IMG/VR virus record: IMGVR_UViG_3300043442_000189
DNA length: 23,610 nt
Reading direction: 5' to 3' (one strand)
Source: a virus
The notes below the pieces were generated by a model. That model saw only the letters and a list, made by a program, of their open reading frames with translations. It did not search any database and was not told where the DNA came from. Below, in pieces: positions 1 to 17,109 of this stretch; position 1 is the first letter of the stretch; the number at the start of each line of letters is the position of its first letter. The translations under genes were made by a program, and so were the position numbers.

Positions 1-63
1 TGTAAACGTAGATCCGGTAACACTACTAAGAGATATTGCAGATCGCATTGTTGAATAAGCCAT
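1..63 (-). CDS. N-terminal fragment of a minus-strand gene running off the window (MAYSTMRSAISLSSVTGSTFT...), possibly virion protein
   Basis: ATG at 63-61 after an A-rich leader, 25 nt downstream of the stop of 89..541; open to the window edge. Confidence 0.55.
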   Translation of the reverse strand, partial: MAYSTMRSAISLSSVTGSTFT

Positions 64-88
64 TTTCTATTTTATTTTTTAAAGGTTT

Positions 89-541
89 TTACAGTTTTAT
101 AAAGTTATATAGCGAGTACCATTGCGGTGTCAACTGACCATCTGCAATATATGTAGCACTTGTAACAACACCCGTAGCTACACCATTTGCTGGTTTAATT
201 GTTTCTGAATATATAACACTACCGTCTACTTGAGAACCTGCTCCCGGTTCGACTAGTACATCATCAACACTCATTGACATTATAGTAATCTTTGTACCAG
301 ACTGAGCTGATGAAACTGCTGGTAGGTATACGGTTACAGCACCGGGACCTATTGTTGTAACATTAGAAATAATGAACACGTTCTCTAAAGCAGTTAACTG
401 TTCCCATGAAATAAAATAATCAGTAACACCTTCTGCAAACGGATCTAGTATTACCACTTTCGGAACACTAGGGTTAGGTGGCGTAGGCGCGGGAGGAGGT
501 TGTACTTTACCAGATGCTATTAAAAACGGATTGTTCGCCAT
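89..541 (-). CDS. Putative virion structural / tail-fibre-associated protein
   Basis: 150 aa, Pro-rich N-terminus then a beta-rich segment (VTVYLPAVSSAQSGTKITI) resembling tail-fibre small domains; on the divergent arm. Confidence 0.6.
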   Translation of the reverse strand: MANNPFLIASGKVQPPPAPTPPNPSVPKVVILDPFAEGVTDYFISWEQLTALENVFIISNVTTIGPGAVTVYLPAVSSAQSGTKITIMSMSVDDVLVEPGAGSQVDGSVIYSETIKPANGVATGVVTSATYIADGQLTPQWYSLYNFIKL

Positions 542-554
542 ATACTATAATATA

Positions 555-562
555 CAAAAGTA
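555..562 (-). promoter_or_regulatory. Bacteroidota-type -7 promoter box (TACTTTTG) for the minus-strand arm
   Basis: Matches TAnnTTTG 13 nt upstream of the ATG at 541; no TTTG at canonical -33 spacing. Confidence 0.45.
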
Positions 563-899
563 CAACTGATTATTCAAATATAAAAGGTTTTTTCGGGTAC
601 ACTAGATAACGTCTGATATATCATTCAAAGAATACTCCCTATAGGGTATAATGTCCGTTATATCATACAAAACTATACCCTTATGGGTACTATAAGAAAC
701 ATTATCCCCCGGGTACTTCTGGTAGTTAGCGTACCCCCGTATGTAACGGCGGACGAATTACTGTACGGGAGGGGGTGTGATACGGCTGTGAAAAGTATAT
801 GTGGAAGGGGGTGTGAAGGGGGGTTACTGCAACCGACCCCGGCGCGTGTCGAGTTAGGGGGTACCCCCCGTGAAAAACCCTAATGATCTTAATAACACT

Positions 900-1127
900 A
901 TGCAACAAGAACCAAAATGCCAGTGCTGCAAAAGCACAATGTCTGTAGGTTTCGTGGAAACCTACATTCCCTGCTACGACGACGGCGGATCAATCGATTC
1001 ATTCGACGTTGACGTCGAACGCGTCGAAATCTGTACTAATCCTGACTGCGATTACAGTATTAATACCGCGGAACGCAGCGGCATCCGCGCAACGCACTGC
1101 GATTGCGACGATGATCTCCCTTTCTAG
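900..1127 (+). CDS. Small Cys-rich (Zn-ribbon-like) protein with C-terminal DDDLPF
   Basis: ATG 15 nt after motif; CQCC...CTNPDC; ends CDDDLPF. Confidence 0.8.
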   Translation: MQQEPKCQCCKSTMSVGFVETYIPCYDDGGSIDSFDVDVERVEICTNPDCDYSINTAERSGIRATHCDCDDDLPF

Positions 1128-1186
1128 GGAGGTCATCACCCCTTCGGGGTGAACAGGAAAAACCCTAATTGATAAAATACACACAT

Positions 1187-1375
1187 ATGGAAAAAATGTT
1201 GAAATGCACCTGCGGGTGCACAGAATGGACCACAACTGTGGTGCCGTTCCTAACGGGATACTGTCCCGAAACTGTTGATGTCGACTATGCAGACATAGAC
1301 GTCTGCGCTTCTTGTGGTAAAGAAGCGTATCTGGTCAGCTGTGTAGATGATGAAGATGATGATCTCCCCTTTTAG
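1187..1375 (+). CDS. Small Cys-rich (Zn-ribbon-like) protein with C-terminal DDDLPF, likely paralogue of 900..1127
   Basis: ATG 17 nt after motif; CTCGC...CASC; ends EDDDLPF. Confidence 0.8.
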   Translation: MEKMLKCTCGCTEWTTTVVPFLTGYCPETVDVDYADIDVCASCGKEAYLVSCVDDEDDDLPF

Positions 1376-1430
1376 GGGGGTTCATTATCATCAATGTGAA
1401 AAACCCTATTAAATATAATACATAACACAT

Positions 1431-1649
1431 ATGAAAAAATTAGCAATTGAAATCGCATCGTTTATAGGATGCATTGTCACTCTTCACTGGTTGGGAGTAA
1501 TCGTTTTTAGTCTTGTGACTCCGTTTAGAATTACTCAAATGACTGGGTCATTTGTCTACTCGTTTGTTAGTATATTCTTTTGCGTGCTTATCACGCTTGG
1601 AATATTTGCTGACTTGAGTGACAAGAAATACTTTGATCGCTTCGAGTGA
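1431..1649 (+). CDS. Small membrane protein (two predicted TM helices)
   Basis: Two hydrophobic stretches; ATG 20 nt after motif. Confidence 0.8.
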   Translation: MKKLAIEIASFIGCIVTLHWLGVIVFSLVTPFRITQMTGSFVYSFVSIFFCVLITLGIFADLSDKKYFDRFE

Positions 1650-1672
1650 TCACTTGTGTGTAGTGTGGTGAG

Positions 1673-1699
1673 AGGGGACTTCGGTCCCCTTTTATTTTA
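1673..1699 (+). terminator. Intrinsic terminator
   Basis: AGGGGAC-TTCG-GTCCCCT followed by a T-rich tail. Confidence 0.8.
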
Positions 1700-1736
1700 C
1701 TACTATAAAAACCCTAATAAAACCAATCTCTACACT

Positions 1737-1895
1737 ATGGAACACAAATTTGAATTTGAAACATTTGATCTTGGTGAGATCCCTAAGATGCAAGCGAAAC
1801 TGAATCAGTGGATAACTATCGGGAAACTAATTGATCATAAGATCATTGTGTTATCCGAAAGAAAACTGCTGGTTCAATACAGAGTGCACAAATAG
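1737..1895 (+). CDS. Hypothetical protein (52 aa, MEHKFEFETF...)
   Basis: ATG 18 nt after motif; the longer GTG-start call crosses the terminator and motif. Confidence 0.75.
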   Translation: MEHKFEFETFDLGEIPKMQAKLNQWITIGKLIDHKIIVLSERKLLVQYRVHK

Positions 1896-1945
1896 TGCAC
1901 TTTGTTTTCTTTTCTAAAAACCCTAATAACGGCAATCTATATACT

Positions 1946-2101
1946 ATGAAAGATAAAATCACAATCACAGAAGATTACGCTATTAGCGTAAACCGCGATG
2001 TCCAAGACATCATAAAAGAGAAGATCAATGAGGGATACTTCATTGTAAACAGTTACTCACATCCTGCGGTGGGAATGTGTTACGTAATGATCCCTGCATA
2101 G
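1946..2101 (+). CDS. Hypothetical protein (51 aa, MKDKITITED...)
   Basis: ATG 18 nt after motif. Confidence 0.75.
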   Translation: MKDKITITEDYAISVNRDVQDIIKEKINEGYFIVNSYSHPAVGMCYVMIPA

Positions 2102-2145
2102 CGGGGATACATTACAAAAAACCCTAATGATTTTAACACATACAT

Positions 2146-2295
2146 ATGAACGAAGTTCAAGATGCTCGTAAAGAGTTAATGGACACCATCATCAAAATGA
2201 TGAAGAGTGCCGAAGAGAAACAAATTCCACTCGCAGAGATGCGTGAAATGTTCGAAGAAATTCGAAAAGTGTGGGACCAAAAGATACCCCTATAA
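2146..2295 (+). CDS. Hypothetical helical protein (49 aa, MNEVQDARKELMDTIIKMMKSAEEKQIPLAEMREMFEEIRKVWDQKIPL), absent from the ORF track
   Basis: ATG 17 nt after motif at 2117; TAA at 2293-2295 inside a hairpin, as in neighbouring units. Confidence 0.75.
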   Translation: MNEVQDARKELMDTIIKMMKSAEEKQIPLAEMREMFEEIRKVWDQKIPL

Positions 2296-2340
2296 GGGGT
2301 GTCTTTTCTTTTGTCAAACCCTAATAATACCAATACATAT

Positions 2341-2535
2341 ATGCAAGAAAATCATTTATCACCCGCAGAGCGTGCGGATGTACTTCGCAACATCAATATG
2401 AAGATGATGTTGCTATTCGGTAAACAAATCACCGAAGAGATGTACAACGAGTTTCACGAAATGTCCGACAGCGGACTATTCGGCGTGTCACTCTCGTACT
2501 CGATGATGTTGATGCAAAAGAGAAGAGAGTGTTAA
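2341..2535 (+). CDS. Hypothetical protein (64 aa, Met-rich)
   Basis: ATG 15 nt after motif. Confidence 0.75.
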   Translation: MQENHLSPAERADVLRNINMKMMLLFGKQITEEMYNEFHEMSDSGLFGVSLSYSMMLMQKRREC

Positions 2536-2586
2536 CGCACTCTTTTCTTTCCACTTGTAAAAACCCTAATGAAACAAACACACATT

Positions 2587-2799
2587 ATGGAATATTTAAA
2601 AGCAAGACACGACACATTACAGCGGTCGTTAGTTCGTATCGTCAAGACAATTGAGAGAAAAATTGAGTATCTCGAAAAAGGGAAACCTGTTTCAGAGTTT
2701 GCCGACAGAAACGAAATGTTAACGAAACTCAAACAAGACATTGTTCATTACCGTGGTGTATTACACGGTGTAGAATGCTGTCAAAAATTGTTTTATTAA
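2587..2799 (+). CDS. Hypothetical coiled-coil protein (70 aa)
   Basis: ATG 16 nt after motif (alternative in-frame ATG at 2569 lies inside the motif). Confidence 0.75.
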   Translation: MEYLKARHDTLQRSLVRIVKTIERKIEYLEKGKPVSEFADRNEMLTKLKQDIVHYRGVLHGVECCQKLFY

Positions 2800-2820
2800 A
2801 ACCCCTTCGGGGGTTTTATT
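2797..2820 (+). terminator. Intrinsic terminator-like hairpin
   Basis: TAAAACCCC-TTCG-GGGGTTTTA. Confidence 0.7.
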
Positions 2821-2859
2821 CACACTAATTAAAAACCCTAATGATTCTAATTATACACT

Positions 2860-3165
2860 ATGGAAAACAACCAACCCATTCTTTCCTGCGCGGGAAGGGA
2901 CGCAGTGTCAATTGACTCTGCTTTATTGCAACAGTTGTTGCAATCATTTAGACCAAACCTCATCGGTGTTCAACATCGGGCAATGCAAATTAATAGCATA
3001 ATGTTCGATATTACTAATGGTGAGTTTGGTGATAAATCCTTGAAAATATTCAAGGATACTATAACAGAAGAGTTTCTGTTTATCCAATTAATGGAAGCGT
3101 CTCGTCTTGCGAGAACGGTTTCTGCGGAATCGTTGTGTGACGCTGATGAACCGGATAACCATTAA
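2860..3165 (+). CDS. Hypothetical protein (101 aa)
   Basis: ATG 17 nt after motif. Confidence 0.75.
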   Translation: MENNQPILSCAGRDAVSIDSALLQQLLQSFRPNLIGVQHRAMQINSIMFDITNGEFGDKSLKIFKDTITEEFLFIQLMEASRLARTVSAESLCDADEPDNH

Positions 3166-3184
3166 CTCCGACAAATTGAAAACG

Positions 3185-3220
3185 GCACCTTGTGGAAACA
3201 CAGGGTGCTTTTTTTCTTTT
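3185..3220 (+). terminator. Intrinsic terminator
   Basis: GCACCTTGTG-GAAA-CACAGGGTGC plus T tract. Confidence 0.85.
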
Positions 3221-3344
3221 AAAGTGCGATTTGTCCATCGGTGAAACACCCGTAAAATAAGGAAAAACCGTTTTTCAGTGCGGTGATAACACCGTCCTCG
3301 TGCTACTACTCGGAAAAACCCTAATGAACTTAATTCTATACACT

Positions 3345-3617
3345 ATGAATAATATCATAAACGAGATGATTGCTACGGGAGTAGCGACGCTCACAGAGAA
3401 AATCGCGTTCTACGAGAAAACAATTAAGGAATCTGAAACAGGATTAATTAAGAAAGTACTCGGCGAACCTACGGACAACTATACGATTGAATCACACCTA
3501 AAAGGTTTGGTGACAATGCGTGGTATGGTTGTAGAATTGCACCGTGCTCTTGCGGAACTGCAACCGAAATCCGTAAAGAGTCTAAAGCGCGCAAAGCGTG
3601 GAAGACCTCGCAAATAG
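3345..3617 (+). CDS. Coiled-coil protein with C-terminal AT-hook-like KRGRPRK
   Basis: ATG 19 nt after motif; ends RAKRGRPRK. Confidence 0.75.
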   Translation: MNNIINEMIATGVATLTEKIAFYEKTIKESETGLIKKVLGEPTDNYTIESHLKGLVTMRGMVVELHRALAELQPKSVKSLKRAKRGRPRK

Positions 3618-3622
3618 TGTGT

Positions 3623-3643
3623 AGCACCCTGTAACGGGGTGCT
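3623..3643 (+). terminator. Hairpin between array units (no strong U tract)
   Basis: AGCACCCTG-TAA-CGGGGTGCT. Confidence 0.5.
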
Positions 3644-3678
3644 CACTCTACCTCAATTAAAAACCCTAATTACTTGCT

Positions 3679-4152
3679 ATGTTTAAATTAAAGTTCAAAA
3701 ACGAGCGTGTTGTGCGGGATGCACAGGGCGTTCAAAGTAAGCGTTACTACTACAAGGTAACGGGTATGTCACCTGAACAAGTCGAACAGTATCGTCTTGA
3801 TTTGGGTACCGACGACGAAGGAAAAGATTGGGCTGTCATTGAAGACGGTGTTCCAATTTATCGCAGTGAAAAGCGTTTGGGTGAGATTGCTGTTATCAAA
3901 CGCAGTATGAATCCAAACAAGACCACCAATCGTCACTCGTGGTACGCAAAGTGCAATCGCGAAATCTTAACAGATTTGTTAAGCGAGAACAGTGCTATTG
4001 GTTCCACGGGATTTGCGCAATTTGCGTATCAGGACTTTTTGGAACAATCCAAAGTCTTAATGCGTGAGATGATTGCAAAGGGTACTGTTGGTGAGTCGGA
4101 GACGGAGTCCGAGAAGGAAACCGAGAGTGAGAAGAGTGTGGACGATTTGTAA
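3679..4152 (+). CDS. Hypothetical phage protein with acidic tail (ends VDDL); likely paralogue of 4484..4972
   Basis: 157 aa; motif 8 nt upstream; YYxV-x3-[S/T]xE pattern shared with 4484..4972. Confidence 0.85.
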   Translation: MFKLKFKNERVVRDAQGVQSKRYYYKVTGMSPEQVEQYRLDLGTDDEGKDWAVIEDGVPIYRSEKRLGEIAVIKRSMNPNKTTNRHSWYAKCNREILTDLLSENSAIGSTGFAQFAYQDFLEQSKVLMREMIAKGTVGESETESEKETESEKSVDDL

Positions 4153-4187
4153 AAGTGAGAGCGCCCCTTCGGGGGTGCTCACTTTTA
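4150..4187 (+). terminator. Intrinsic terminator
   Basis: GAGCGCCCC-TTCG-GGGGTGCTC extended by TAAAAGTG/CACTTTTA. Confidence 0.8.
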
Positions 4188-4483
4188 AAATCTAAAACTG
4201 ATTCTATGTGTTATGTTTTTAAATAGTCCGACCCTAATGGTTTGTGTGGTGTGACGAGCATACCGACTATAAGAGAGTTGTAAGGTTGCAGTGTTGGAAT
4301 AGTACTACTCTGATAGTTAGTTAGTTAGCAAGCTAGCGTTGCGGGTTGGTTGGTTGTGGTGCTCGTTTTTTGTGTGGTGTGTTTTGTTTGGAAATAGTTT
4401 TCCCTAATAGACTGCTTGTGCGTGTCTAGACGATACTGTACAAGTAAAGTAAACTAATAATTAACAATTTAAAAACTACTGAA

Positions 4484-4972
4484 ATGAAAGCAGTACAGAT
4501 TAAAGGTCAAGAAATGTACCGTAAGAAAGGTACAGGTAACGTAGTATGGAAGTACTATGTAGTAGATGCAACCGCAGAAGAGTTGGATGCACTAAAAGCG
4601 ATTAAGGGTGACTACTATCGCGAAACTTCCGAACCCGTTATGTATAACGGAAAGTTAATTACGTGTCCTCTATTGTTCGAAAACAATTGGGAAGGTGACG
4701 TCATTGACTACAATGTCACCGCTAACAACCGTCTTGTAATAGATAAGTTGGCAATGTTGAAAGCAGAAAGCATTATGAAGAGTGTCGGTGACGATACTTT
4801 GAAGGTTGCGATCGCTAACAAGATTGCAAACGAGTCTATCGGCGACTTGTTTCAGCGTAGAAGTAGTACCAGTGTAGGTGGTGCAATAGGTAAAACCGAG
4901 ACTAAAACAGAAGGTTCTGCGACAGAAAACGTAGAAACTCCTGAACCAGCCGACAATGTTGACGACTTGTAA
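4484..4972 (+). CDS. Hypothetical phage protein with acidic tail (ends VDDL)
   Basis: 162 aa, A-rich leader, similar architecture to 3679..4152. Confidence 0.85.
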   Translation: MKAVQIKGQEMYRKKGTGNVVWKYYVVDATAEELDALKAIKGDYYRETSEPVMYNGKLITCPLLFENNWEGDVIDYNVTANNRLVIDKLAMLKAESIMKSVGDDTLKVAIANKIANESIGDLFQRRSSTSVGGAIGKTETKTEGSATENVETPEPADNVDDL

Positions 4973-4982
4973 CTGATTGACA

Positions 4983-6430
4983 GTGAGAGTGTTGCAGTGT
5001 GTGAGAGTGCCCAACACCTTGGGTATTCTCCACATTGTGACAACCCACTAGAAACACACACAAGTACAACGGTTTAGAGTATAGCATTAATTAACTAATT
5101 ATACTACTCTCTTATGGTTACCTACTACCTCATACACACAGTTACTCGTAAAGTGTTATTTGAGACTCATTGTTCTACTCTTCTCTCTGCTTATATAGAA
5201 CAGAAGGTAGAGATGCATATGATTCCCCGCGTTTCTGTAATCATCGACGACTCAACTGATTGATTACCAACATATTAGTCCCAGCAGAGTGTTTTTAATT
5301 AAACATAGTGTATAGTTTCGGTTTCTATACTCTGTTGGGACTATCTTTTTTGAATTCCCGTAAACCCTCACAACGGTGAGATAATTAACCTAAATAATAA
5401 CATAGGTATGGTTTGTATCAAATTCTACGGGAATTCATTCATATTGCTATATACTTGTAGCAAGAAAGTAAGTAATTGTAGTGTACACGCAGCCTGATAA
5501 ATAGACACAATGCTGTTGAATAATCGGTAAAACTGGTGTAAGATGAAATAGGTTATGTACATAAGTGCACATTGTGTACTGTAAAACACGCAGTTCCTAT
5601 CACTACAATTGCTTTCTTTACTCTCATCCTAGATTAACTAACCCGGTAAAACTTGCACTGATATGCAGGTAATCCTATACTAGGTAGGTTCTTGATTCCA
5701 CGGTAGTGACTTCCGTGTAATAAATTAAGACTGTCATATGAAATCTATCTTTTTTTTAATTTCACTCTATAACTTTGGTCGGTTATAGGGTAAAAAAATC
5801 AGAAATTGCTGCAATTTGTAACCGAAAGGTTACTGGGCTAAACAGAACTTGACCAACAGTAGGATAATATACTGTTAGTTTTGTGATGCCTATTGCAGCC
5901 AGTTGAATAGAACTGTAAAATCTATTGGTGTTTAAACTGTTCACCAACCACAGTCAATCATACATTAGAGATTATCCTCTTTTATATGGTGTTAATTTCT
6001 CTTTGCACTAACCGAAAGGTGAACAGTTGTAACCTTCGACTACACAGAAAGCAAGTTTAAAGAACCAGTACTCAATCTGGGACAAGCTGATGCAGGTAAG
6101 ATTTGGTTACAACTGAGTGCAATGGGATTATTTAATGCACCATTCTCACGTGGATATAAAGACTTCCTACCACCATAACAATCTAACTCCACAGCTGAGT
6201 GGAAATGGTTATATAAGTGTAAGATGTGAAACCACAATGATTAATTGACTATTGTTATATCTGGATAATCCTTTATTGGTAAAGATATAATATTGCGAGT
6301 CACCGTGTTAATCATTCTCCCAAGGGTGAGCAGTTGTAATGGTTACATGTTAAGATGGGAGACCAAACGGTTATGCTTAACATGGGATAACTTATTAGAC
6401 TATTACAACTGAGTGCAGAGGGGATAATAG
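4983..6430 (+). ncRNA. Putative structured non-coding RNA region (one long RNA or several)
   Basis: No credible ORF; series of closed stems, e.g. 5276-5290/5329-5343, 5351-5362/5426-5437, 5470-5483/5601-5614, 5808-5815/5892-5899, 6024-6034/6105-6115, 6331-6344/6398-6411; G-U pairs favour the + strand. Confidence 0.6.
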
Positions 6431-6497
6431 AATAAACTATTCAAATTCAGAGATCAACTATACTGAGAGTTAGTTGTAAAACTTAAATACCAAAACA

Positions 6498-6845
6498 ATG
6501 GTTAAAGCAACAAACAACAAAGGGTTTTCATTAACCTTCGAGAACGGATTTACTATATCTGTTCAGTTCGGTTACGGTAATTACTGTGACAATGGTCGTC
6601 ATCCTGACGGATTTGAATTCTCTAAAAAGCAAGAGGTAACAGAGTCTTCTAATGCAGAGATTGCAATATGGGATGCTGATGGACAGTGGTATGTATTCTA
6701 TAACGGTGATACCGTAATGGGATATTGTTCCGCAAATGATATTGCTGAATGGATTGACAAGGTAAGCAAACTTCCCGCTGATTATATCAGTATGAAGAAC
6801 GATGCTGATTTAAACGCTTTAGAGTCACAATCTTATGAAGGATAG
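6498..6845 (+). CDS. Hypothetical phage protein
   Basis: 115 aa; GFSLTFENGFTISVQFGYGNYC pattern looks like a phage-type small protein; A-rich leader. Confidence 0.85.
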   Translation: MVKATNNKGFSLTFENGFTISVQFGYGNYCDNGRHPDGFEFSKKQEVTESSNAEIAIWDADGQWYVFYNGDTVMGYCSANDIAEWIDKVSKLPADYISMKNDADLNALESQSYEG

Positions 6846-7050
6846 TGCTCCCGTTTATTGGCAAATGCGTAATGGTGAATTGATATCCGTAGATGATATG
6901 GATGTCAATCACCTTCGCAATGTTCTCAAAATGATTATCCGTAACTCTAAAACTACTCGTAAGAAGGATGCATTTCTGCAGAACTTCATAGAAGAAGAGA
7001 TTAATGAAATCGAAAGACAACAAGAAGAAGAGTCAGACTATCCATACTAA
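6835..7050 (+). CDS. Hypothetical phage protein
   Basis: 71 aa, overlaps upstream stop; WQMRNGELISVDDMDVNHLRN. Confidence 0.8.
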   Translation: MKDSAPVYWQMRNGELISVDDMDVNHLRNVLKMIIRNSKTTRKKDAFLQNFIEEEINEIERQQEEESDYPY

Positions 7051-7080
7051 AATGCGGGGGAACAATCCCCTGCATTTATT
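7050..7080 (+). terminator. Terminator hairpin
   Basis: AAATGCGGGGGA-ACAA-TCCCCTGCATTT. Confidence 0.7.
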
Positions 7081-7106
7081 ATTATTAACCTAATACCATA
7101 TTAAAA

Positions 7107-7199
7107 ATGGAAGAAAAAGAGTTTAAACAAGGATTATTAGCGGGAGTGCTAATAATGAGTACCGTTTTATTGTATGTTTTACTATTAATACTATTATAA
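7107..7199 (+). CDS. 30-aa single-TM peptide (MEEKEFKQGLLAGVLIMSTVLLYVLLLILL), absent from ORF track
   Basis: Fills the gap between the terminator and 7202; preceded by AACCTAAT, a motif-like variant. Confidence 0.55.
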   Translation: MEEKEFKQGLLAGVLIMSTVLLYVLLLILL

Positions 7200-7201
7200 G
7201 A

Positions 7202-7525
7202 ATGGAAGATTTAGATTTTGGTTCTCTGTATGAGAACTTTGAGAAAGAACAGTCGTATCTTTCTGCGGAAAAGGAACAAGTTCCGGTTTGTTACAACTAC
7301 TACTCTAAAGTGGTTAAGTTTAACTACACAGGGGATAATCTACCCGTGTTTTTGTTTGTGTATGATTTTGATGAAAACAAAGACGAGTTATATGCTACAG
7401 TTATTAAATCACATTGTCCCGAGTATTATCCAGGTGAGAAAGTTACTCTAATTCCACAGTTTACTGCGATTATAGAGAACTTTGACATTATTGAGCATAA
7501 GAAAGAGACCGAAATCCTATTTTAG
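7202..7525 (+). CDS. Hypothetical protein
   Basis: 107 aa, tiles with neighbours. Confidence 0.75.
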   Translation: MEDLDFGSLYENFEKEQSYLSAEKEQVPVCYNYYSKVVKFNYTGDNLPVFLFVYDFDENKDELYATVIKSHCPEYYPGEKVTLIPQFTAIIENFDIIEHKKETEILF

Positions 7526-7526
7526 T

Positions 7527-8402
7527 ATGAGTTCAAGACAGATATTAAACGGTCTCGAAAGTCTGCAAAGACATAGAGAGTTCTTTACATTCTCTCCCGA
7601 AAGACAGCGTATGGAATACTACCTAAATAAAAATTGGTATAATACTAACTATGTGTACTTGTACTCTGATGATGACAAGGTATGTTTAGCCAATGAAATA
7701 CGTAGAGTTAGAATTGGTACCACAGGTAAAGCATGGGCACAGAGTGATAAAGACAGAAGGGGTCTTACCTATGACAAGAAAACTAAAAAGGTTAAGTTAT
7801 GGTATAACTCTAACATGTATAGTTTCAGTCAGCATGAAATGAACTCTTTATTTGATCATATGGAAGTGAGTTGGTTCAAAGATACATACGATGTACTCAC
7901 TGGATTAGTTACACCTACTATGCTTGGTAAAGTATTTAGTGGTAAGATTACTGATGAACTCGGATTTTGTAAAGAGTTTATCAAATCTAAACCTTGGTTA
8001 AAGAACAGTGATGTTACACCTGAAAAGTTAGAAAGTTTGTTAGCACATATGCGCACAAATAATATGGTTAGATTAGGCGCTTTCATACAGTCTTTCTCCG
8101 TTGCTAAATCAGGTAGAGATCTTTGTGATCAGATTATCAATGGTAACTCAAATAAGTACCATCTGATATATCAAGTAATTGCACAAGCACTTGCCCTGAA
8201 TGAGAAGATAGACTTCTCTAAAGATGTAGAAGAGATTATGAAGTTAGAAGAACAGTTTAACAAGATGATGATGCGACTCAAGTTAGAGACTAATCCTAAT
8301 GTAGCATTGGTTAAAAATGGTGATAGACTAGATGAGGTTCATAATCATCCCTCATATGCACGTCAAGAACCATTGCTTGATTTAGTAATGCAAGACTTAT
8401 AG
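7527..8402 (+). CDS. Hypothetical phage protein (291 aa)
   Basis: Long ORF; ATG at 7527 one base after the upstream stop. Confidence 0.85.
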   Translation: MSSRQILNGLESLQRHREFFTFSPERQRMEYYLNKNWYNTNYVYLYSDDDKVCLANEIRRVRIGTTGKAWAQSDKDRRGLTYDKKTKKVKLWYNSNMYSFSQHEMNSLFDHMEVSWFKDTYDVLTGLVTPTMLGKVFSGKITDELGFCKEFIKSKPWLKNSDVTPEKLESLLAHMRTNNMVRLGAFIQSFSVAKSGRDLCDQIINGNSNKYHLIYQVIAQALALNEKIDFSKDVEEIMKLEEQFNKMMMRLKLETNPNVALVKNGDRLDEVHNHPSYARQEPLLDLVMQDL

Positions 8403-8404
8403 TT

Positions 8405-8436
8405 TAAACCCCTGAGATTTATATCTTGGGGGTTTA
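8405..8436. terminator. Bidirectional terminator between convergent genes
   Basis: TAAACCCCTGAGAT...ATCTTGGGGGTTTA between stops at 8402 (+) and 8434 (-). Confidence 0.7.
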
Positions 8437-8667
8437 ATTATTCTTTGCTGATGCTTTAATAAACAAGTGTTGTTTCTCTTGTTCAGCTGCCATGATTGCC
8501 ATCAATCCTCTTAGTTCTTCATATGTGAATTGAACTACAAGATTATCTTCTTCGTTAAGTACTTGTATTTTCTCTTCATCTATGTAGATCATAGGTTGTG
8601 TGTAATCGTCCTCGTCTTCATCGAATCCGGGAGGTGCAAAGAGTCCTGCTTTTAAGTATGTTGCCAT
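8434..8667 (-). CDS. Small acidic hypothetical protein
   Basis: 77 aa, 2 nt downstream of the phosphoesterase. Confidence 0.75.
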   Translation of the reverse strand: MATYLKAGLFAPPGFDEDEDDYTQPMIYIDEEKIQVLNEEDNLVVQFTYEELRGLMAIMAAEQEKQHLFIKASAKNN

Positions 8668-8669
8668 AG

Positions 8670-9677
8670 TTATAGTACTTTACCGTCTATGATTAATTTA
8701 TTATCTACTGAAAATGTACCATCTGGTTTTACATCTACTGTAGCAAAACCGTGTACCCATTCTGTATGGGTGTTCATATATTCCGCGTCTAGTTCACATA
8801 GGCATCCTGTTGACCAAGAACCGTGTACTGTACCATCTATATCTTTAGTAAGATGCTCTGACTTTCTATGGAAGTGTCCGCATATTACAGATGATTTAGT
8901 TTTTAGGTACATGTTACGTGCTGGGTTTACAGTTCCTCCGCCTTTGTACTCGTGACCGTGAATGATATTGAGGTTGCCTGCTTTTATAGTTGTAAACTTT
9001 TCAACTAGATGGACTCTATTTTCACCAAACTTCAAGAGAATAGGTATCTCAAACTCGTCTGTTCCTATCCATTCAGGTGCTTTAAGTTTTAACCAGCGCT
9101 CAAGGCGCATCTCATGGTTACCTATCTTATAGTATATCAGTGCGTTAGGAAATACTTGTCTCATTGCAGAGATAAACCATCTACCTTGTTCTAATTCTTC
9201 ACGCATCTTAGGTTTACTCGGATCTTTATCAAATGATGATAGACCATAGAAGTCTAGGATGTCACCGTTGAGAATGATTGTGTCGGGTTTATATTCTTTG
9301 AGATAATCTATTGCTGCTACTAGAGCTTCTTCATCGTGGTAAGGAAAGTGTATATCGGATAATACTCCTATACGTTGTGATCCCTTACCTAGTGTGAGTA
9401 CAGTCGCTTTCTCTTTGTAGGATTTTGGTATATTATCAAAGGGATTGTAGTTGTATGTAGGTTCTCTTAGTAGATCTTTGTCAGCAACAATTTCTCTATT
9501 AGGTTTTCCTCGTAGACCAGCGTAGTATCTTATCATATCTCTTACATCTTCTACAGATTTAAAGTAGTCAGGTTTCTCGGAGTAGATAAGTTTTGCAAGG
9601 GTAAGAATGGGAGTTGTTTTGTACTTTGAAAGGTAAGATTTTACAACCTCACCTTTCTTTGTTGATTTGCTAGCCAT
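8670..9677 (-). CDS. Calcineurin-like metallophosphoesterase
   Basis: Motifs SDIH, GDILD, GNHE, HGHE and GHFH in order. Confidence 0.9.
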   Translation of the reverse strand: MASKSTKKGEVVKSYLSKYKTTPILTLAKLIYSEKPDYFKSVEDVRDMIRYYAGLRGKPNREIVADKDLLREPTYNYNPFDNIPKSYKEKATVLTLGKGSQRIGVLSDIHFPYHDEEALVAAIDYLKEYKPDTIILNGDILDFYGLSSFDKDPSKPKMREELEQGRWFISAMRQVFPNALIYYKIGNHEMRLERWLKLKAPEWIGTDEFEIPILLKFGENRVHLVEKFTTIKAGNLNIIHGHEYKGGGTVNPARNMYLKTKSSVICGHFHRKSEHLTKDIDGTVHGSWSTGCLCELDAEYMNTHTEWVHGFATVDVKPDGTFSVDNKLIIDGKVL

Positions 9678-9715
9678 ATAGTAAAGGTAAGAAAATTTAA
9701 TTTAATAACAAAATT

Positions 9716-10165
9716 ATGGGATTTCACGTACATGTGGATAGAGACCACATTAAGCAGAAGTTAAAGTTTCATCTGACTAAACTAGATGACGTGCACATAG
9801 ACCAGATAGCTGATGTAATGGACCAGATGAATAGTAATCAAGCTGCTATTATATTCAAATCTCTAGATGGATATGTATATAAAGATCATCCGTGGGTTAT
9901 CGGTGACAGCGTTATGATACATAAAGACTACCTCTATACTAATAGATATGACGAGAATGCTATGGAAGAGTATGGTATCATAGATGAGAATGGTCTTGTA
10001 GAATGTAGGATAATCAGGATAAGCAAGCTTGAGAGTGAGATGAGAGTACAGTATAAACGAGTAGATACTGATGGTTCACATGGTACCGCAGAGTGGTCTT
10101 GCGATATAAATAAAATAGAAAGAACCGTGGGTCTAGAGAGACCGAACTTAAATGATTTATTATGA
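9716..10165 (+). CDS. Hypothetical protein
   Basis: 149 aa, A-rich leader. Confidence 0.8.
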   Translation: MGFHVHVDRDHIKQKLKFHLTKLDDVHIDQIADVMDQMNSNQAAIIFKSLDGYVYKDHPWVIGDSVMIHKDYLYTNRYDENAMEEYGIIDENGLVECRIIRISKLESEMRVQYKRVDTDGSHGTAEWSCDINKIERTVGLERPNLNDLL

Positions 10166-10356
10166 ACGAGAGTCAAGATAAACGTGCCGTATACATGGGC
10201 ACATTCGAAGCGTATAAGAAAACAACCGGTAAGCAGTTAGTAGAATTTGTGGATATAACCAAGGACATTTGGAAATTTACAAGTAAACATACTGTTATAC
10301 TATATTGTATTTCTTTGAGTGCATTAGCACTAAGTATTGTAGCATTAGCTATATAA
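10162..10356 (+). CDS. Small protein with C-terminal TM helix
   Basis: ATGA overlap; hydrophobic C-terminus. Confidence 0.7.
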   Translation: MNESQDKRAVYMGTFEAYKKTTGKQLVEFVDITKDIWKFTSKHTVILYCISLSALALSIVALAI

Positions 10357-10412
10357 TGTAAACTATTTAAAGTTCTGAGTACTAACCATTTGGTATTTCA
10401 CTAACTTTGATT

Positions 10413-10685
10413 ATGCTATATCAGCTTCCCACAGGAAAAGTAGTTTGGTTAGAGGTAGAGGATGTTCTTAACCTCTCTAAAGAAGACCTACAGTTCCTGA
10501 TTGCGATCAACGCTGGTGAGCATGTACATAATCCATTTAAGTACTCATCTGTAGAGCAATCGGAGAAACCCGATGACCTTGTAGAAACAGAAGAAGAAGA
10601 AGTAGAAACTTACTATGAGGAGTTCTTCCCAGATGAGTTTCCAGACTTGTTGGATGATGGTATTCATTTAGAATTTGATGACTGA
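10413..10685 (+). CDS. Hypothetical phage protein with acidic C-terminus
   Basis: MLYQLPTGKVVWL...; ATG 3 nt after TAACTTTG. Confidence 0.8.
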   Translation: MLYQLPTGKVVWLEVEDVLNLSKEDLQFLIAINAGEHVHNPFKYSSVEQSEKPDDLVETEEEEVETYYEEFFPDEFPDLLDDGIHLEFDD

Positions 10686-10722
10686 TACTCAGTCTGTTTG
10701 TTGTTTGTGTTTTGTTTTGTTT

Positions 10723-10754
10723 AGTGGGGGAGTAAAATCCCCCATTATTTTTTT
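10723..10754 (+). terminator. Intrinsic terminator
   Basis: AGTGGGGGA-GTAAAA-TCCCCCATT plus T tract. Confidence 0.8.
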
Positions 10755-10781
10755 CTGTAAATTTTTAAATCCTTAATAAAA

Positions 10782-11249
10782 ATGAGTAAATATCAAAAGG
10801 TCGTTTACGACGGGAGAATGAGTTCTTATCAGAAGTATGGTGCTTCTTTTAAGAAAATTCAATTCGAGAAGGATCCATTCAATTCTTACCAGAATTTCTT
10901 GTACAAGCGTGCGTTATTTGGACTTTCTGTATATCAGAAAGATGAGCTTGAAAAGATGCATTGGGATAAGAAGAGAAGGATCGAGAAAGTGCATGAGCGT
11001 GCACAAAAAGTATTAAATCTCTGGAAACAAGAGATGACTGACCAGTGGTTGGGTGCTGTTTTATCTACTGTATTTCATCATAGTAGTTTGGTCAAAGAAC
11101 TAAACGAAAAATTTGGTGGTGAAACAGATGATCAGTACATTAGCAAAGTAGATTTTAAGTCATTGGGTATAAGTAAAGCACAAATTGTGCAGAAACTTAT
11201 CCAAGAAAAGATTCTACCTGCTAATTTTTATCAACTAACTGGTGAATAA
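10782..11249 (+). CDS. Hypothetical phage protein
   Basis: 155 aa, A-rich leader. Confidence 0.85.
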   Translation: MSKYQKVVYDGRMSSYQKYGASFKKIQFEKDPFNSYQNFLYKRALFGLSVYQKDELEKMHWDKKRRIEKVHERAQKVLNLWKQEMTDQWLGAVLSTVFHHSSLVKELNEKFGGETDDQYISKVDFKSLGISKAQIVQKLIQEKILPANFYQLTGE

Positions 11250-11560
11250 TGGAACTACACGGTCTGACAAATGAAGAGATTCTTTTTGTATACATGAGCA
11301 ACAAGAAGAGAATAGAAACATATTCTTTAATCCTTGAAAAACGCGGAGTATATAACGAACTTGAAATACCAGAAGTGGGTTACATTTCCGTATTCAGAAA
11401 TATGAATGAGGAGGACCTAGCAGATATGCTAGAGTCCCCTCATTACAAAATCTGTTTGCAAATTCAAGACAAACTCGAACCAATTGTCGACATGATTCAA
11501 GAGAATCTTCCAGAAGAGTATAAAAAAATAAGTGAAATCTTTAAAGACTTAGAAGAATGA
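11249..11560 (+). CDS. Hypothetical protein
   Basis: TAATG coupling with the upstream gene. Confidence 0.8.
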   Translation: MELHGLTNEEILFVYMSNKKRIETYSLILEKRGVYNELEIPEVGYISVFRNMNEEDLADMLESPHYKICLQIQDKLEPIVDMIQENLPEEYKKISEIFKDLEE

Positions 11561-11772
11561 AAACTACATTTATCGTAAATGGTAAGACACAACTTGTACT
11601 TACCCCAGAAACAGATACCGAGAAGGTATTACTTGCAGCATTAGTTAAACAATCAGATCGTATGATTACAGATCTTTCAGAAGATAGTCAATATGGTAGA
11701 ACATATGGTCATGGTTCTCTTTTGATAACTAGTCAAGCAAAAGTACATGCAAGCGAAGAAGAAGCTGTGTAG
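11557..11772 (+). CDS. Hypothetical protein
   Basis: ATGA overlap. Confidence 0.75.
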   Translation: MKTTFIVNGKTQLVLTPETDTEKVLLAALVKQSDRMITDLSEDSQYGRTYGHGSLLITSQAKVHASEEEAV

Positions 11773-12160
11773 TGGTTGTAATCAATTAGAATACATTTGG
11801 AAGAAAGAGGGGTTAGAGAGATATTGCAAGAATTGCTGGAGTTGCCATAACAAAAGTAAGAAAAGCGCTAAACCAACTAGTAAAAAACCTCTCTCCCCTC
11901 GATCTTCTAAACAGCAGAAGTTAGAAGCGTTGTATTCTATACTGAGAACTAAGTATCTACAACATCATCCGTACTGTGAAGCACATCTTCCAGGATGTCA
12001 AATCAATGCATCAGACATACATCATAAGAAAGGTAGAACAGGAGATCTAATGTTAGATGATACTGAGTTCCTTGCTGTATGTAGAACATGTCATGGTTGG
12101 ATTGAGACACATCCTGAAGAAGCTAAAGTATTAGATCTATCTAAATCAAGAGAGTCATGA
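11747..12160 (+). CDS. HNH-family endonuclease with N-terminal Zn finger
   Basis: CxxC...CxxC, then CEAHLPGC...DIHHKKGR...CRTCHGWIETHP. Confidence 0.8.
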   Translation: MQAKKKLCSGCNQLEYIWKKEGLERYCKNCWSCHNKSKKSAKPTSKKPLSPRSSKQQKLEALYSILRTKYLQHHPYCEAHLPGCQINASDIHHKKGRTGDLMLDDTEFLAVCRTCHGWIETHPEEAKVLDLSKSRES

Positions 12161-12465
12161 GTAAGATGAAAGAAGTTATGATGCATCCTTGGGGTTATGG
12201 TGTTGACGTGCGAGTTTACTTTGATGGTGTTAAAGATTGTATGTATCACACTGCGTATCTGCAAGGTGATATTACACATAACATGCTGAAGAGATTAATA
12301 AACGTTGCAGGTCAAGATCATCCAGAGGGTGTGCCTAGTAAACAACCAATTAAAGCAGAGTTATATGTGTATAGAATGTATGGTAAGGATAAAGAGTACC
12401 AGCAGTTCTGTAGATCATTAACTATGTCAGAAAAACAATGTAAAGAAGTATGGAGCTATGAGTAA
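12157..12465 (+). CDS. Hypothetical protein
   Basis: ATGA overlap. Confidence 0.75.
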   Translation: MSKMKEVMMHPWGYGVDVRVYFDGVKDCMYHTAYLQGDITHNMLKRLINVAGQDHPEGVPSKQPIKAELYVYRMYGKDKEYQQFCRSLTMSEKQCKEVWSYE

Positions 12466-13552
12466 ATCAAAGCAAGAAGTGCAAGATGATGCACTTGAGG
12501 TGTTACAAGATTATAACCGTGCTACTGCTGCAGTAAGCATGGGTGTAGGTAAGACTTTAATTGGTCTTCGACATATGGAGCAGAACTTTAAATCAGGAAG
12601 AAAGTTTCTGGTTGTAGCTCCAAAGTTAGCAATTTTAAAGTCGTGGGAAGATGAAGCGCGCAAGTTTAATCTTGAGTATTTGCTTGATCACATAGACTTT
12701 ACAACGTATTTGTCATTGACAAAACAGCATTTGAACTATTACATGGTGTATCTAGATGAGTGTCACAACTTGTTATATACCCATGAACCTTGGTTAGCAC
12801 AATACAAAGGAAGAATACTTGGTTTAACTGGTACTCCTCCTAAAGTAAAGAAATCAGAAAAGGGTGCTATGGTCAACAAGTATTGTCCTGTAGTGTATGA
12901 ATACATTACAGATCATGCTGTTGAAGATGGTATCCTTAATGATTATAGTATAGTTGTACACTTGCTGAGTCTTGATGCTCGTAAGAACTATATGAAGAAA
13001 ACCAAGAGTGGTAAACAGTTTCCGTCAAGTGAATTCTCCGATTACAATTATTGGTCAGAACGATTACTTACTGCAAACTATGGTAAGGAAGAACAGATAC
13101 TCCGTGTGATGCGTATGAAAGCGCTCATGAGTTATCCTAGTAAGACCAAGTACGCTATTGACTTGTTTAACTCTATTACAGATAAGTGTATCTTATTTGC
13201 TAATACACAAGAACAAGCGGATAGTATGTGCACATATAGTTATCATAGTAAGAATCCGAATTCTGAACAGAATCTACAAGATTTTAAGAATGGTAACATC
13301 GACAAACTATCTTGTGTACTGCAGTTAAACGAGGGTGTTAATATCCCCGATCTAAAACAAGGTATTATAATGCATGCATATGGTAATGAACGAAAAAGTA
13401 CTCAGCGTATTGGTCGTTTGTTACGTTTGAATCCTAATCAAAAGTCTATAGTACACATATTATGTTATGAAGATACTGTTGATTATACTTGGGTATGTAA
13501 AGCATTAGAAGACTTTGATCAATCAAAAATTAAATACGTAAAAAAACAATGA
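12458..13552 (+). CDS. Superfamily 2 (DExH) helicase
   Basis: MGVGKT Walker A, DECH, LTGT, LNEGVNIP, QRIGRLLR motifs. Confidence 0.9.
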   Translation: MSKSKQEVQDDALEVLQDYNRATAAVSMGVGKTLIGLRHMEQNFKSGRKFLVVAPKLAILKSWEDEARKFNLEYLLDHIDFTTYLSLTKQHLNYYMVYLDECHNLLYTHEPWLAQYKGRILGLTGTPPKVKKSEKGAMVNKYCPVVYEYITDHAVEDGILNDYSIVVHLLSLDARKNYMKKTKSGKQFPSSEFSDYNYWSERLLTANYGKEEQILRVMRMKALMSYPSKTKYAIDLFNSITDKCILFANTQEQADSMCTYSYHSKNPNSEQNLQDFKNGNIDKLSCVLQLNEGVNIPDLKQGIIMHAYGNERKSTQRIGRLLRLNPNQKSIVHILCYEDTVDYTWVCKALEDFDQSKIKYVKKQ

Positions 13553-13824
13553 GTAACTTACCTAGTGGTGCAGAAAATGATTCACGGGCACCGTGGAATG
13601 AATACGATAATCTATGTAGATACTGTGATTCTGATGTACTATATGACTTCTTTATGGAAGAAGTAGCAAAGGACTTAGGAGTTCAAATGATGGAATTTGA
13701 TTCAGAAGAAGACTATCTGGAGTTCTTACATGAGCAAGCAGAATTTAATTTATCTGAACAACCTTTATGTAAACAATGCGCTAAAGAAGAATACTATGAT
13801 GACGATGATGACCGCGACCTATGA
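13549..13824 (+). CDS. Acidic hypothetical protein with CxxC pairs
   Basis: NLPSGAENDSRAPWNE N-terminus; CRYC and CKQC; poly-Asp tail. Confidence 0.75.
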   Translation: MSNLPSGAENDSRAPWNEYDNLCRYCDSDVLYDFFMEEVAKDLGVQMMEFDSEEDYLEFLHEQAEFNLSEQPLCKQCAKEEYYDDDDDRDL

Positions 13825-14089
13825 TACTGACGTATTAGAAGAAACTGAAGTTGTTACTACGTCAGAGGAAGAGAGTAAGATTATTCTATATAATGATCAT
13901 GTAAACTCTTTTGAACATGTGATTATGTGCTTAGTAGCATTCTGTGATCATGGGTTTACCCAAGCAGAACAGTGTGCATTTATAGTACATAACAAAGGCA
14001 AATGTGCAGTAAAACACGGTAGTAAAGAAGATATGCTAGAGCGTGCAAAAAAATTATCTGAAGAACATTTGACTGTAGAAGTAATCTGA
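13805..14089 (+). CDS. clpS: ATP-dependent Clp protease adaptor ClpS
   Basis: IILYNDHVNSFEHVI...QAEQCAFIVHNKGKCAVKHG matches the ClpS core; exact start uncertain (ATGs at 13796-13808). Confidence 0.85.
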   Translation: MMTATYDTDVLEETEVVTTSEEESKIILYNDHVNSFEHVIMCLVAFCDHGFTQAEQCAFIVHNKGKCAVKHGSKEDMLERAKKLSEEHLTVEVI

Positions 14090-14098
14090 TTATATTTG
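14068..14098 (+). promoter_or_regulatory. Bacteroidota consensus sigma promoter
   Basis: TTTG (14068-14071), 19 nt spacer, TATATTTG (14091-14098). Confidence 0.65.
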
Positions 14099-14138
14099 TG
14101 GTGTGTACTTGTTTACATTGTTATGTGTTTTGATTTAG

Positions 14139-14171
14139 CTAGAAGAGGAGAAACGTCTCCTCTTTTAGTTT
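14139..14171 (+). terminator. Terminator hairpin
   Basis: CTAGAAGAGGAGA-AACG-TCTCCTCTTTTAG. Confidence 0.75.
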
Positions 14172-14184
14172 AAAACTATTTATC

Positions 14185-14478
14185 ATGAAAACTAAAAAGA
14201 AAACTAAGGAAGAAGTAGCAAAAGACCTAATCAATGCAATGTTTACTATTGCTGGTTATGATACTACCTTCGATGATGTTGCTAAAGAACCTGATGGTTA
14301 CTATGAAAGATATACCTGGTCTCCTGAACAAGAGAAAGAATGGATATCTTGGGCAACAGATTATGTAAAGAAACATTTAAAGCAACGTTCTACCTATGCT
14401 GATAGAGAGGTTGCTATGTTTAACCTATGTTATGGTCTCCGGACTGTATTTCCACAAACAGAAATTGACGCAGCATGA
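14185..14478 (+). CDS. Hypothetical phage protein
   Basis: 97 aa. Confidence 0.8.
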   Translation: MKTKKKTKEEVAKDLINAMFTIAGYDTTFDDVAKEPDGYYERYTWSPEQEKEWISWATDYVKKHLKQRSTYADREVAMFNLCYGLRTVFPQTEIDAA

Positions 14479-14777
14479 GACCAGGAACCAGAGTAGTATG
14501 CGTAGATGATTCTATGATACCAGAGATTGCTGAATGGCAACCAAAACATTGTCCTAATTGGGTAAAGAAAGATCAAGAATATACTATCCGGTTATTTGAT
14601 GATAATGCAGGTATAGTAGATGGTGTTTTACTTGAAGAAGTTAGAAATCCTATTGTTTATCTTAGTAAATGGGGTAGAGTCATAGAACCTAGGTTTGCTA
14701 CGTGGAGGTTCCGAGAAATTGCAGAACCAGAATCTGAAGAATCATCTATAGAAACTTGGAAAGTTCTTGCAGTATAA
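14475..14777 (+). CDS. Hypothetical phage protein (SH3-like GxRVVCVDD start)
   Basis: ATGA overlap. Confidence 0.8.
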   Translation: MRPGTRVVCVDDSMIPEIAEWQPKHCPNWVKKDQEYTIRLFDDNAGIVDGVLLEEVRNPIVYLSKWGRVIEPRFATWRFREIAEPESEESSIETWKVLAV

Positions 14778-14803
14778 TTACTTTTGTTACAAATAAACCA
14801 ACT

Positions 14804-15082: not shown

Positions 15083-15087
15083 AATCC

Positions 15088-15192
15088 GTAGTACAGATAG
15101 TCGAGTAGGTAGCTTCTACTCACCCCAGTTGAGGAATACTCTCCGTAAGGACGTCTATCCGGAGTGACGTATAGCACTGGGTTCTGTACTAC
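15088..15192 (+). ncRNA. Putative structured RNA domain
   Basis: GTAGTACAGA/TCTGTACTAC closing stem with internal GAGTAG/CTACTC and CCCAGT/ACTGGG stems. Confidence 0.4.
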
Positions 15193-15524: not shown

Positions 15525-15538
15525 CAAATAATTATCTT

Positions 15539-16435: not shown

Positions 16436-16438
16436 ATT

Positions 16439-16681: not shown

Positions 16682-16683
16682 TT

Positions 16684-17108: not shown

Positions 17109-17109
17109 A

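Follow-up and report, generated by a model that had tools for sequence, protein, structure and literature searches.

Among the early genes of the crAss-like phage phi14:2 there are long intergenic regions whose transcription is high and persistent (10.1101/2020.03.07.982082). Large structured RNA regions with pseudoknots, GOLLD and ROOL, have been described in phages including those of lakes (PMC12286853), and self-cleaving ribozymes occur in clusters in intergenic regions of bacteria and phages (PMC10085705). A region with more than 1 kb of gene-free sequence in the early region of a putative crAss-like phage, was analysed at positions 4983 to 6497 of IMG/VR record IMGVR_UViG_3300043442_000189, a viral DNA of 23,610 nucleotides (nt) called the window below. 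We conclude that this region is one small gene and a row of separately folding RNA modules common to unrelated phages, and is not one giant RNA.

A small gene and a row of RNA modules

The initial annotation described the region as gene-free, made of back-to-back stems, and proposed a large non-coding RNA (ncRNA) or a cluster of ncRNAs. All of its stems were found: 5276-5290/5329-5343 (15 bp with one G.U, extendable to 17), 5351-5362/5426-5437 (12 bp, all Watson-Crick), 5470-5483/5601-5614 (14 bp with one G.U), the hairpin 5764-5791 and the stem 5808-5815/5892-5899, inside which GTAACC-GAAA-GGTTAC and AACAGTA/TACTGTT are present both in the sequence and in the fold. Nine stems of at least 11 bp were counted over 4975-6497, against 2.4 ± 1.6 (maximum 5) in 30 dinucleotide shuffles. 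Folding z-scores of eight tested pieces were -6.9, -7.3, -4.3, -2.8, -0.6, -6.5, -3.6 and -5.8; seven thus folded better than their shuffles (z -2.8 to -7.3) and the weak one (-0.6) is the pseudoknotted module M2, the local score itself not being specific, as some coding windows near terminators also reach about -4.8.

The claim that the region holds no credible open reading frame (ORF) did not stand. Positions 5114-5263 form a conserved 49-codon ORF, open in the relatives L001, L002 and L004 (L-numbers denote compared loci or records, L321 being phi14:2), and the gene-free part is about 5264-6497. The proposal of a cluster of ncRNAs is supported by covariation within modules, by the lack of an Rfam match and by presence in an RNA library; covariation among homologues was seen within H1, H2, M2 and M3. 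A single large ncRNA is disfavoured: the modules D1, M2 and M3 occur at 91-98% identity in phages whose flanks are 40-50% alike, and close relatives carry other modules at this place. One component, a twister-type ribozyme, is of a kind already known, and the 5′ third of the region, with the protein gene in it, is the tail of the early operon ("early", for the genes at 870-4972, is a label from layout only). Nothing had been listed within 5993-6428, the site of two twister-like elements. The reported lack of a match to GOLLD or ROOL was confirmed by Rfam covariance models, which gave no hit on the region; over the window, the region alone and 41 other loci or stretches, their matches were limited to tRNAs, to hatchet ribozymes lying outside the window and to noise below threshold. 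The features are listed in Table 1.

Table 1. Features of the region and related positions in the window
Feature	Position	Strand	Description
Long hairpin	4983-5049	+	z -6.85; after gene 4484-4972; no U-tract
AGTATAGCA	5078-5086	+	Complementary to 5445-5455
49-codon protein gene	5114-5263	+	ORF conservation
Hairpin H1	5276-5343	+	Loop core 5304-5315 (CATAGTGTATAG) complementary to early-gene start-codon regions
Best predicted H1 target	3336-3347	+	Start codon of gene at 3345; further predicted sites at starts 2860, 1737, 1946, 3679
Hairpin/junction H2	5351-5437	+	Covarying closing stem
TATACTTG	5450-5457	+	One mismatch to the Bacteroidota -7 element TAHHTTTG
Module D1	5470-5618	+	Closed multibranch domain with D-arm-like GUU...GGUAAAAC element; mobile
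Module M2	5625-5741	+	tRNA-like part and 3′ H-type pseudoknot
Module M3	5756-5994	+	Multi-helix RNA of about 240 nt, two pseudoknots
Twister-like sibling	5995-6126	+	P2- and P5-like stems kept; no UAA cleavage strand, no UCCCAAGG loop
Expanded twister-type ribozyme (putative), type-P1 layout	6127-6428	+	P1 6127-6132/6423-6428, P4 6145-6149/6326-6330, P5 6331-6411
First downstream gene	6498-6845	+	mRNA would carry the twister 3′ cleavage product as structured leader

The uncatalogued modules D1, M2 and M3

None of the three modules has an Rfam match, and a word-based search of the literature without supplements, whose motif alignments could contain them, found no description of them. Each carries a (G/T)GTAAAA(C/T) element. 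A 98% identical copy of D1, its single independent relative, was found in the unrelated context of L221; all three differences lie in the closing stem and keep the pairing, including a change from G-C to A-U. In sequencing run X20, an RNA contig carries a D1-related piece fused to the 3′ end of a twister (runs are numbered X1, X3, X6 and X20-X22; modules X1-X4 and Y, named below, are RNA modules).

The tRNA-like part of M2 consists of a D-arm, a 6-nt CUGAUA loop, a variable-arm hairpin whose loop pairs with the 5′ end, and a T-arm-like GGUUCUUGAUUCC. The module has 21 viral matches, with 92-93% identity in L102 and L187. In an alignment of 17 members, 96.9% of cells were paired and two-sided changes were found in 9 of 23 pairs (0/500 shuffles); the 5′ end covaries with the loop of this third hairpin, being UA in nine members and CG in eight. 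With ARAGORN relaxed to a 75% threshold, the 5′ 90 nt were read as a damaged tRNA in 11 of the 17 rows versus 8 of 340 shuffles, and at 80% in 4 of 17 versus 2 of 340, with parses that vary between members; no tRNA was called at the default threshold. Compared with a tRNA, M2 has a 6-nt loop instead of the 7-nt anticodon loop, no paired acceptor stem and, in the parses shown, no CCA at the acceptor end. A covariance model run over 95 sources recovered only four copies, none of them new.

M3 has eight viral matches (91% identity in L107). In its alignment of seven distinct rows, 97.5% of cells were paired, with two-sided changes in 20 of 52 pairs, two of them in a loop-bulge pseudoknot (5776-5780 with 5851-5855) that switches from GGUC/GACC to GACC/GGUC. 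The second, 3′ pseudoknot is invariant, as is a UAA/GAU internal loop, which we take to resemble the UAA/GAN tertiary motif. In other loci the place of M3 is taken, about 115 nt behind M2, by the modules X1 and X2, small pseudoknot-like RNAs of two sequence types (L102, L142, L179, L187, L193 and L084, L115, L168, L184, L195).

As to function, we would guess that D1 and M2 are tRNA-derived decoy or stability RNAs, a guess that for M2 we put at somewhat below even chances, and that M3 is a compact RNA with tertiary structure that serves in processing or stability; that M3 is a new self-cleaving class is doubtful. The wider alternative, that M2 and/or M3 are new classes of self-cleaving ribozyme and the array is a ribozyme cluster cutting the transcript into units, is also unlikely. 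It draws on the covarying pseudoknots and invariant unpaired bases of M2 and M3, and on the report that new ribozyme classes were discovered close to known ones (PMC10085705). Rfam hatchet matches adjoin M2 in L178, L189 and L192, and a twister-type or hatchet motif is found within 900 nt at 16 of the 21 M2 loci, against 6 of 800 random phage windows; however, coding DNA makes up most of these control windows, near-duplicates are among the loci, and the enrichment points to no more than shared gene-free arrays. M2, moreover, looks tRNA-derived, and only four of the eight M3 rows have a twister motif within 900 nt.

Twister-type elements at the 3′ end of the array

A pattern search with the P5 stem yielded 95 viral stretches, the core positions counted below lying outside the search pattern. 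In the compared loci, 97 distinct elements were parsed (55 compact, 26 expanded and 16 without the 5′ half), and core counts were taken from the 81 with both halves. UAA stands at the cleavage site in 75 of the 81 and the general-base G is present in 79. The long pseudoknot, parsed in 76, is CCC/GGG in 65, compensated to CCA/UGG in six and mismatched in five; the short one is CC/GG in 72/81, versus GC/GC in L177, a separate canonical twister (RF03160, E 9e-12, under the gathering cut-off). The window copy carries all core positions, namely both pseudoknots, the U-A site and the general-base G. By comparison with L177, cleavage is predicted at U6133-A6134, followed by A6135, with G6418 as general base. 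P1 is 6 bp long (0 to 6 bp in the family), P2 is UGCA/UGCA and P4 is CUCAC/GUGAG; in place of a compact terminal L4 there is an insert of about 167 nt (6150-6316), itself a conserved two-arm family.

Two points weigh against cleavage. RF03160 scored no element of the family in five records, and none in the window or in L126 4800-6300, and natural L4 insertions reduced twister cleavage on average in a large survey, changes of the first L4 position being tolerated (10.1101/2024.07.11.603121). For these reasons the element is filed as a twister-type variant and not as an Rfam member; it probably cuts. Cleavage at 6133/6134 would then, as we think likely, free an RNA of about 670 nt (D1-M2-M3-sibling) and leave a structured 5′-OH leader on the mRNA of gene 6498. 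The adjoining sibling has no UAA before its P2-like stem, and its L4 is replaced by ACC-GAAA-GGU; it is predicted to be non-cutting, because the cleavage strand and the L4 loop are missing.

When the twister insert and M2 were compared by eye with the Rfam consensus of hatchet, and with hammerhead, pistol, HDV-like and group I/II intron layouts, the order of helices or the core motifs disagreed. In or near such arrays, hatchet ribozymes scoring above the Rfam cut-off were found at L118 7389-7540, L178 1713-1850, L189 258-395 and L192 863-1021, as were the canonical twister at L177 1501-1564 and, by eye, a hammerhead-like motif in L112 after 5486.

Hairpin H1 and the start codons of early genes

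A repeat search found the loop of H1 to be complementary to several early start regions. Exact complements measure 12, 11, 10 and 9 nt at the starts 3345, 2860, 3679 and 1737; none of 31 other starts has one longer than 8 nt. The sum of the top four was reached in 0/1000 shuffles and the maximum in 3/1000, the weight of this statistic being lessened by its having been picked after the match had been seen. With opening costs counted, net pairing energies were -10.7 to -11.6 kcal/mol at 1737, 1946, 2860 and 3345, and -6.4 kcal/mol at the best of 20 other starts; loop pairing gave -13.7 kcal/mol for early starts versus -7.0 for other starts (p = 4e-5).

The complementarity follows the lineage. 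In group A the loop core is constant in all six rows while the sequence of the stem is replaced, and the stem covaries. Group B (L004 and L215-L218) has a different early region and a different H1 sequence, and there 13-15 nt of H1 are exactly complementary to the ATG and opening codons of its own gene at the position of 3679, a length reached in 0/1000 shuffles for L004 and L218. Pairs of H1 and target crossed between the lineages match over at most 8 nt. A scan with the 15-nt loop core gave 99 viral matches, three of them in stems of at least 16 bp, all in relatives already compared; the early partners of H1 in L002, L211 and L213 lie outside their contigs.

Initiation of translation in Flavobacterium needs an unstructured, A-rich start region (PMC6847099), and repression would therefore be expected where H1 pairs over a start region. 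On balance we incline to the view that H1, produced late in the early operon, would repress genes 1737, 1946, 2860, 3345 and 3679 by covering their start codons. Several observations tell against it: the antisense test compares two lineages only; L219 has no match; the group B complement is largely paired within the hairpin, leaving a net energy of just -6.5 to -7.2 kcal/mol; and when H1 was cofolded with 12 starts by a nested method, which cannot model loop pairing, the net energy was zero for targets as well as controls.

Alternatively, the complement might not act as antisense RNA: it could be a decoy or mini-gene on the minus strand that has an early-type start region, or a DNA operator also present in the early leaders. 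The minus strand of H1 does read as an ATG-bearing start region, the complement is partly paired on the plus strand, and a TATAGCA motif is found at both ends of 5078-5455, pointing inward. However, the plus strand folds better than the minus strand in 9/9 sequences and is also favoured by G.U pairs; the minus-strand mini-ORFs range from 3 to 13 codons and are conserved in neither length nor sequence; and the group B complement covers the coding sequence of one gene and not a repeated operator. We hold this alternative to be improbable.

The end of the early operon

Next to H1, the 5′ third of the region holds the long hairpin, the small gene and H2. The structure of the hairpin is retained in L001, L002 and L004 while its sequence has changed, and it may have a processing or stabilising role. 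In an alignment of four sequences, the window among them, the frame of the small gene is open at 82, 63 and 47% identity, respectively, with differences at codon positions 1/2/3 of 52/26/60. Relatives of the protein are encoded by 14 metagenome contigs; it has no Pfam family, and atlas matches were weak only, below 0.9. The closing stem of H2 shows two-sided changes in 7 of 11 pairs, and H2 is absent in L215, L217 and L218. Both arms of the pairing between 5078-5086 and 5445-5455 are present in the window, L001, L002, L004 and their duplicates, among which no covariation of this pairing was seen. The arms may form a long-range helix closing around the ORF, H1 and H2, or may be two separately conserved DNA motifs.

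More distant counterparts of the ORF stand at the same position in L006, L010 and L015. There, the small ORF is separated from a 470-490-aa gene, whose product presumably resembles a Ro60/TROVE-type protein, by other structured repeated modules, without Rfam match in L006 and L010; the modules may be Y-RNA-like partners of this protein.

A mosaic array behind a promoter-like block

A block that ends in GCTATATA(C/T)TTGTA, shortened in L211, is common to the window and 12 relatives. Near its end stands an element with one mismatch to the -7 promoter consensus of Bacteroidota, TAHHTTTG (PMC6847099), of which exact copies (TATATTTG) are found in L002, L207, L215, L217 and L218. The predicted transcription start, about 5462, is the point where conservation with the relatives stops. 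A scan for sigma-70 promoters, a type that excludes those of Bacteroidota, gave no more matches than expected by chance (21 vs 25). We lean slightly towards host RNA polymerase starting near 5462, the module array being driven from its own host-type promoter.

Behind this block the content changes from phage to phage. The closest viral relative, L001, follows the window to 5459, is unrelated over 5460-6310 and then shares only two short twister motifs, near 6318 and 6400. Mapping against all loci divides the region into blocks with different carriers, and the 200-nt flanks of shared modules are 40-50% alike, the level of random pairs (45%). Among the window and its 12 relatives (nine loci shown), the module orders behind the block are D1-M2-M3, X4-X3, M2-X4-X3, Y-X4 and none, and a twister-type element comes next in 9/9 of the sequences whose downstream DNA exceeds 700 nt; in L217 and L218 only its 5′ half can be seen. 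In relatives, the array-terminal twister-type element sits before a different gene. The uncatalogued modules X3, X4 and Y fill the same array in close relatives (L001 6980-7350; L004, L213, L217, L218).

We propose, with good confidence, that the region as a whole is the end of an early operon followed by a swappable array of independently folding modules, which probably has its own promoter and is probably cut from the downstream mRNA by the twister. The long hairpin, the small gene, H1 and H2 would form the last part of the early transcript, with H1 damping early translation by feedback, and the cargo modules would be recruited singly by recombination at this hot spot. What the data show of this are the gene, the modules with their covarying folds and unrelated flanks, and the lineage-matched complementarity of H1; promoter use, cleavage, repression and the roles of D1, M2 and M3 are proposed. 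This explanation is weakened by several findings. D1 has one independent relative and M3 about three sequence types; the -7 element of the window has a mismatch, and L211 and L219 have no such element; and when the whole array is folded without constraints, M2 and the twister insert pair with each other (45 pairs; -272.7 vs -248.0 summed), a pairing without comparative support.

It is improbable that the modules are selfish or neutral RNA elements piling up behind a promoter in a tolerant intergenic site, of no benefit to the phage. Their fast gain and loss among close relatives, their near-identical copies in unrelated phages and the core-less sibling next to an intact twister would all suit such elements, whereas the compensatory changes indicate selection on module structure, the twister-type element is retained at the 3′ end of the array, and no mobility gene, terminal repeats or target duplications were seen. 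Least probable is that 5463-6428 is one large ornate RNA of the GOLLD or ROOL kind with domains folding and acting together: the dense, back-to-back stems, the single promoter predicted for the array, the fold just mentioned and the recurrence of the order D1-M2-M3 in L208 and of M2-M3 in L186 speak for it, but each module is found alone between unrelated flanks, most are missing from close relatives, no covariation between modules was seen and Rfam gives no match.

Presence in RNA libraries

The phage is present in an RNA library, with most of the region represented. Contigs of the freshwater RNA run X3 match 3694-4150, 4424-5064, 5138-5645, 5894-6065 and 6157-6426 with 0-1 differences, and over 6500-23610 there are 13 short contigs in 12 of 30 bins. 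Contig depth reaches 276 over 5894-6065, compared with 9-14 upstream and 2.6-6.3 in the downstream pieces listed. The contig at 6157-6426 comes from another phage with an identical module, because it runs on into other sequence. Run X3 was selected for containing this region, and all RNA runs are assembled contigs, which carry no information on strand, start, ends, level or cleavage. Bins without contigs are no evidence on expression, nor are the runs X20-X22 (small share), which mostly match shared twister motifs of other phages.

The phage and the rest of the window

The best DNA holders of the window are freshwater metagenomes, and BLASTN against 50,697 cultured phage records gave a single 35-nt chance match. 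Its DnaB-like helicase is closest to those of human-gut crAss-like phages (31-33% identity); other products are a metallophosphoesterase, a helicase, an HNH nuclease, ClpS, a spore-photoproduct-lyase-like protein and a uracil-DNA glycosylase. From the DnaB-like helicase and from start regions without Shine-Dalgarno sequences, we infer that this uncultured freshwater phage is crAss-like with a Bacteroidota host.

The stretch 870-4972 is an array of small genes, most of them preceded by a terminator-like hairpin and the motif AAAACCCTAAT. In 870-3700 nearly each small gene has this arrangement, with the motif just before the ATG, and 11 copies occur up to 4231. The motif is probably a phage-specific promoter, since relatives use other motifs at the same position. 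Upstream of gene 4484, positions 4190-4483 form a G+U-rich stretch of about 300 nt without ORF, which has its own ACCCTAAT motif at 4231, a folding z of -2.6 and is kept in L001. The divergent intergenic region 540-870, with a 24-nt direct repeat (606, 648) and G/C-rich palindromes in a layout conserved in L001 and L004, may be a genome end or an origin. A further hairpin-bearing gene-free stretch, 15080-15525, ends in an odd tRNA (ARAGORN Thr-GGT; Rfam 36.5 bits) with a long replaced middle arm and no CCA; its relatives in run X6 share the ends and differ in the middle. Within this stretch, a contig of DNA run X1 has 37 extra letters at 15226-15234, a strain variation.

Comparison with known systems

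D1, M2 and M3 add three RNA families, short, testable and so far uncatalogued, from a type of neighbourhood in which new ribozyme classes have come to light, and the twister variant is one that Rfam misses. H1 is a concrete candidate for shut-off of early phage genes at the RNA level in Bacteroidota, with a seed that changes with its target between lineages. The region gives an idea of what may lie in those intergenic regions of crAss-like phages that are strongly transcribed but unexplained, and cautions that long gene-free phage stretches may be mosaics instead of single giant RNAs. A bolder and tentative proposal, which we do not rate highly, is an RNA cassette system of freshwater crAss-like phages, in which a fixed promoter and a terminal self-cleaving twister would frame a hot spot of module exchange, the cargo would include at least one new ribozyme or tRNA-decoy class, and H1 would be a lineage-rewritten RNA timer of the early-to-middle switch in a host lacking Shine-Dalgarno pairing.

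The nearest known analogue of H1 is the C4 antisense RNA of phages P1 and P7, in which the loop of a phage RNA pairs with initiation regions of the phage's own mRNAs and tracks its target between lineages (PMC5320573); C4 is released by RNase P, and its repression has been demonstrated. H1 differs from C4 in being a single hairpin behind a small gene, without the three-stem C4 fold or an Rfam match; its putative targets are early genes, whereas C4 targets an antirepressor operon, and it would pair over the AUG and A-rich leader of mRNAs without Shine-Dalgarno sequences. With the twister of type P1 with P5 (RF03160; PMC5408937), the window element shares P1, P2, P4, two pseudoknots, the U-A dinucleotide in L1, the general-base G and the optional P5; it differs in its CC/GG short pseudoknot, its two-arm L4 insert, its long variable P5 and the adjoining core-less sibling.

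The region has no similarity to phi14:2 1-12000 or to cr125_1 1-50000. The stretch in phi14:2 differs in holding a tmRNA by ARAGORN, and its complement to own gene starts is never more than 10 nt. This tmRNA lies in the long intergenic region after g004 (L321 4031-4500), is missing from the record annotation shown and is not called by Rfam at the gathering score. GOLLD and ROOL are single RNAs of 600-800 nt or longer, inherited as a unit and forming homo-oligomeric nanocages; the window region is not one co-evolving molecule, its modules travel singly, and its nearest tRNA is at 15440, so that no tRNA island lies alongside. As in the clusters of self-cleaving ribozymes (PMC10085705), twister-type, hatchet and uncatalogued motifs stand together in arrays of this kind; the array differs from those clusters in its fixed promoter-like start, its twister end and its exchangeable, partly tRNA-like cargo.

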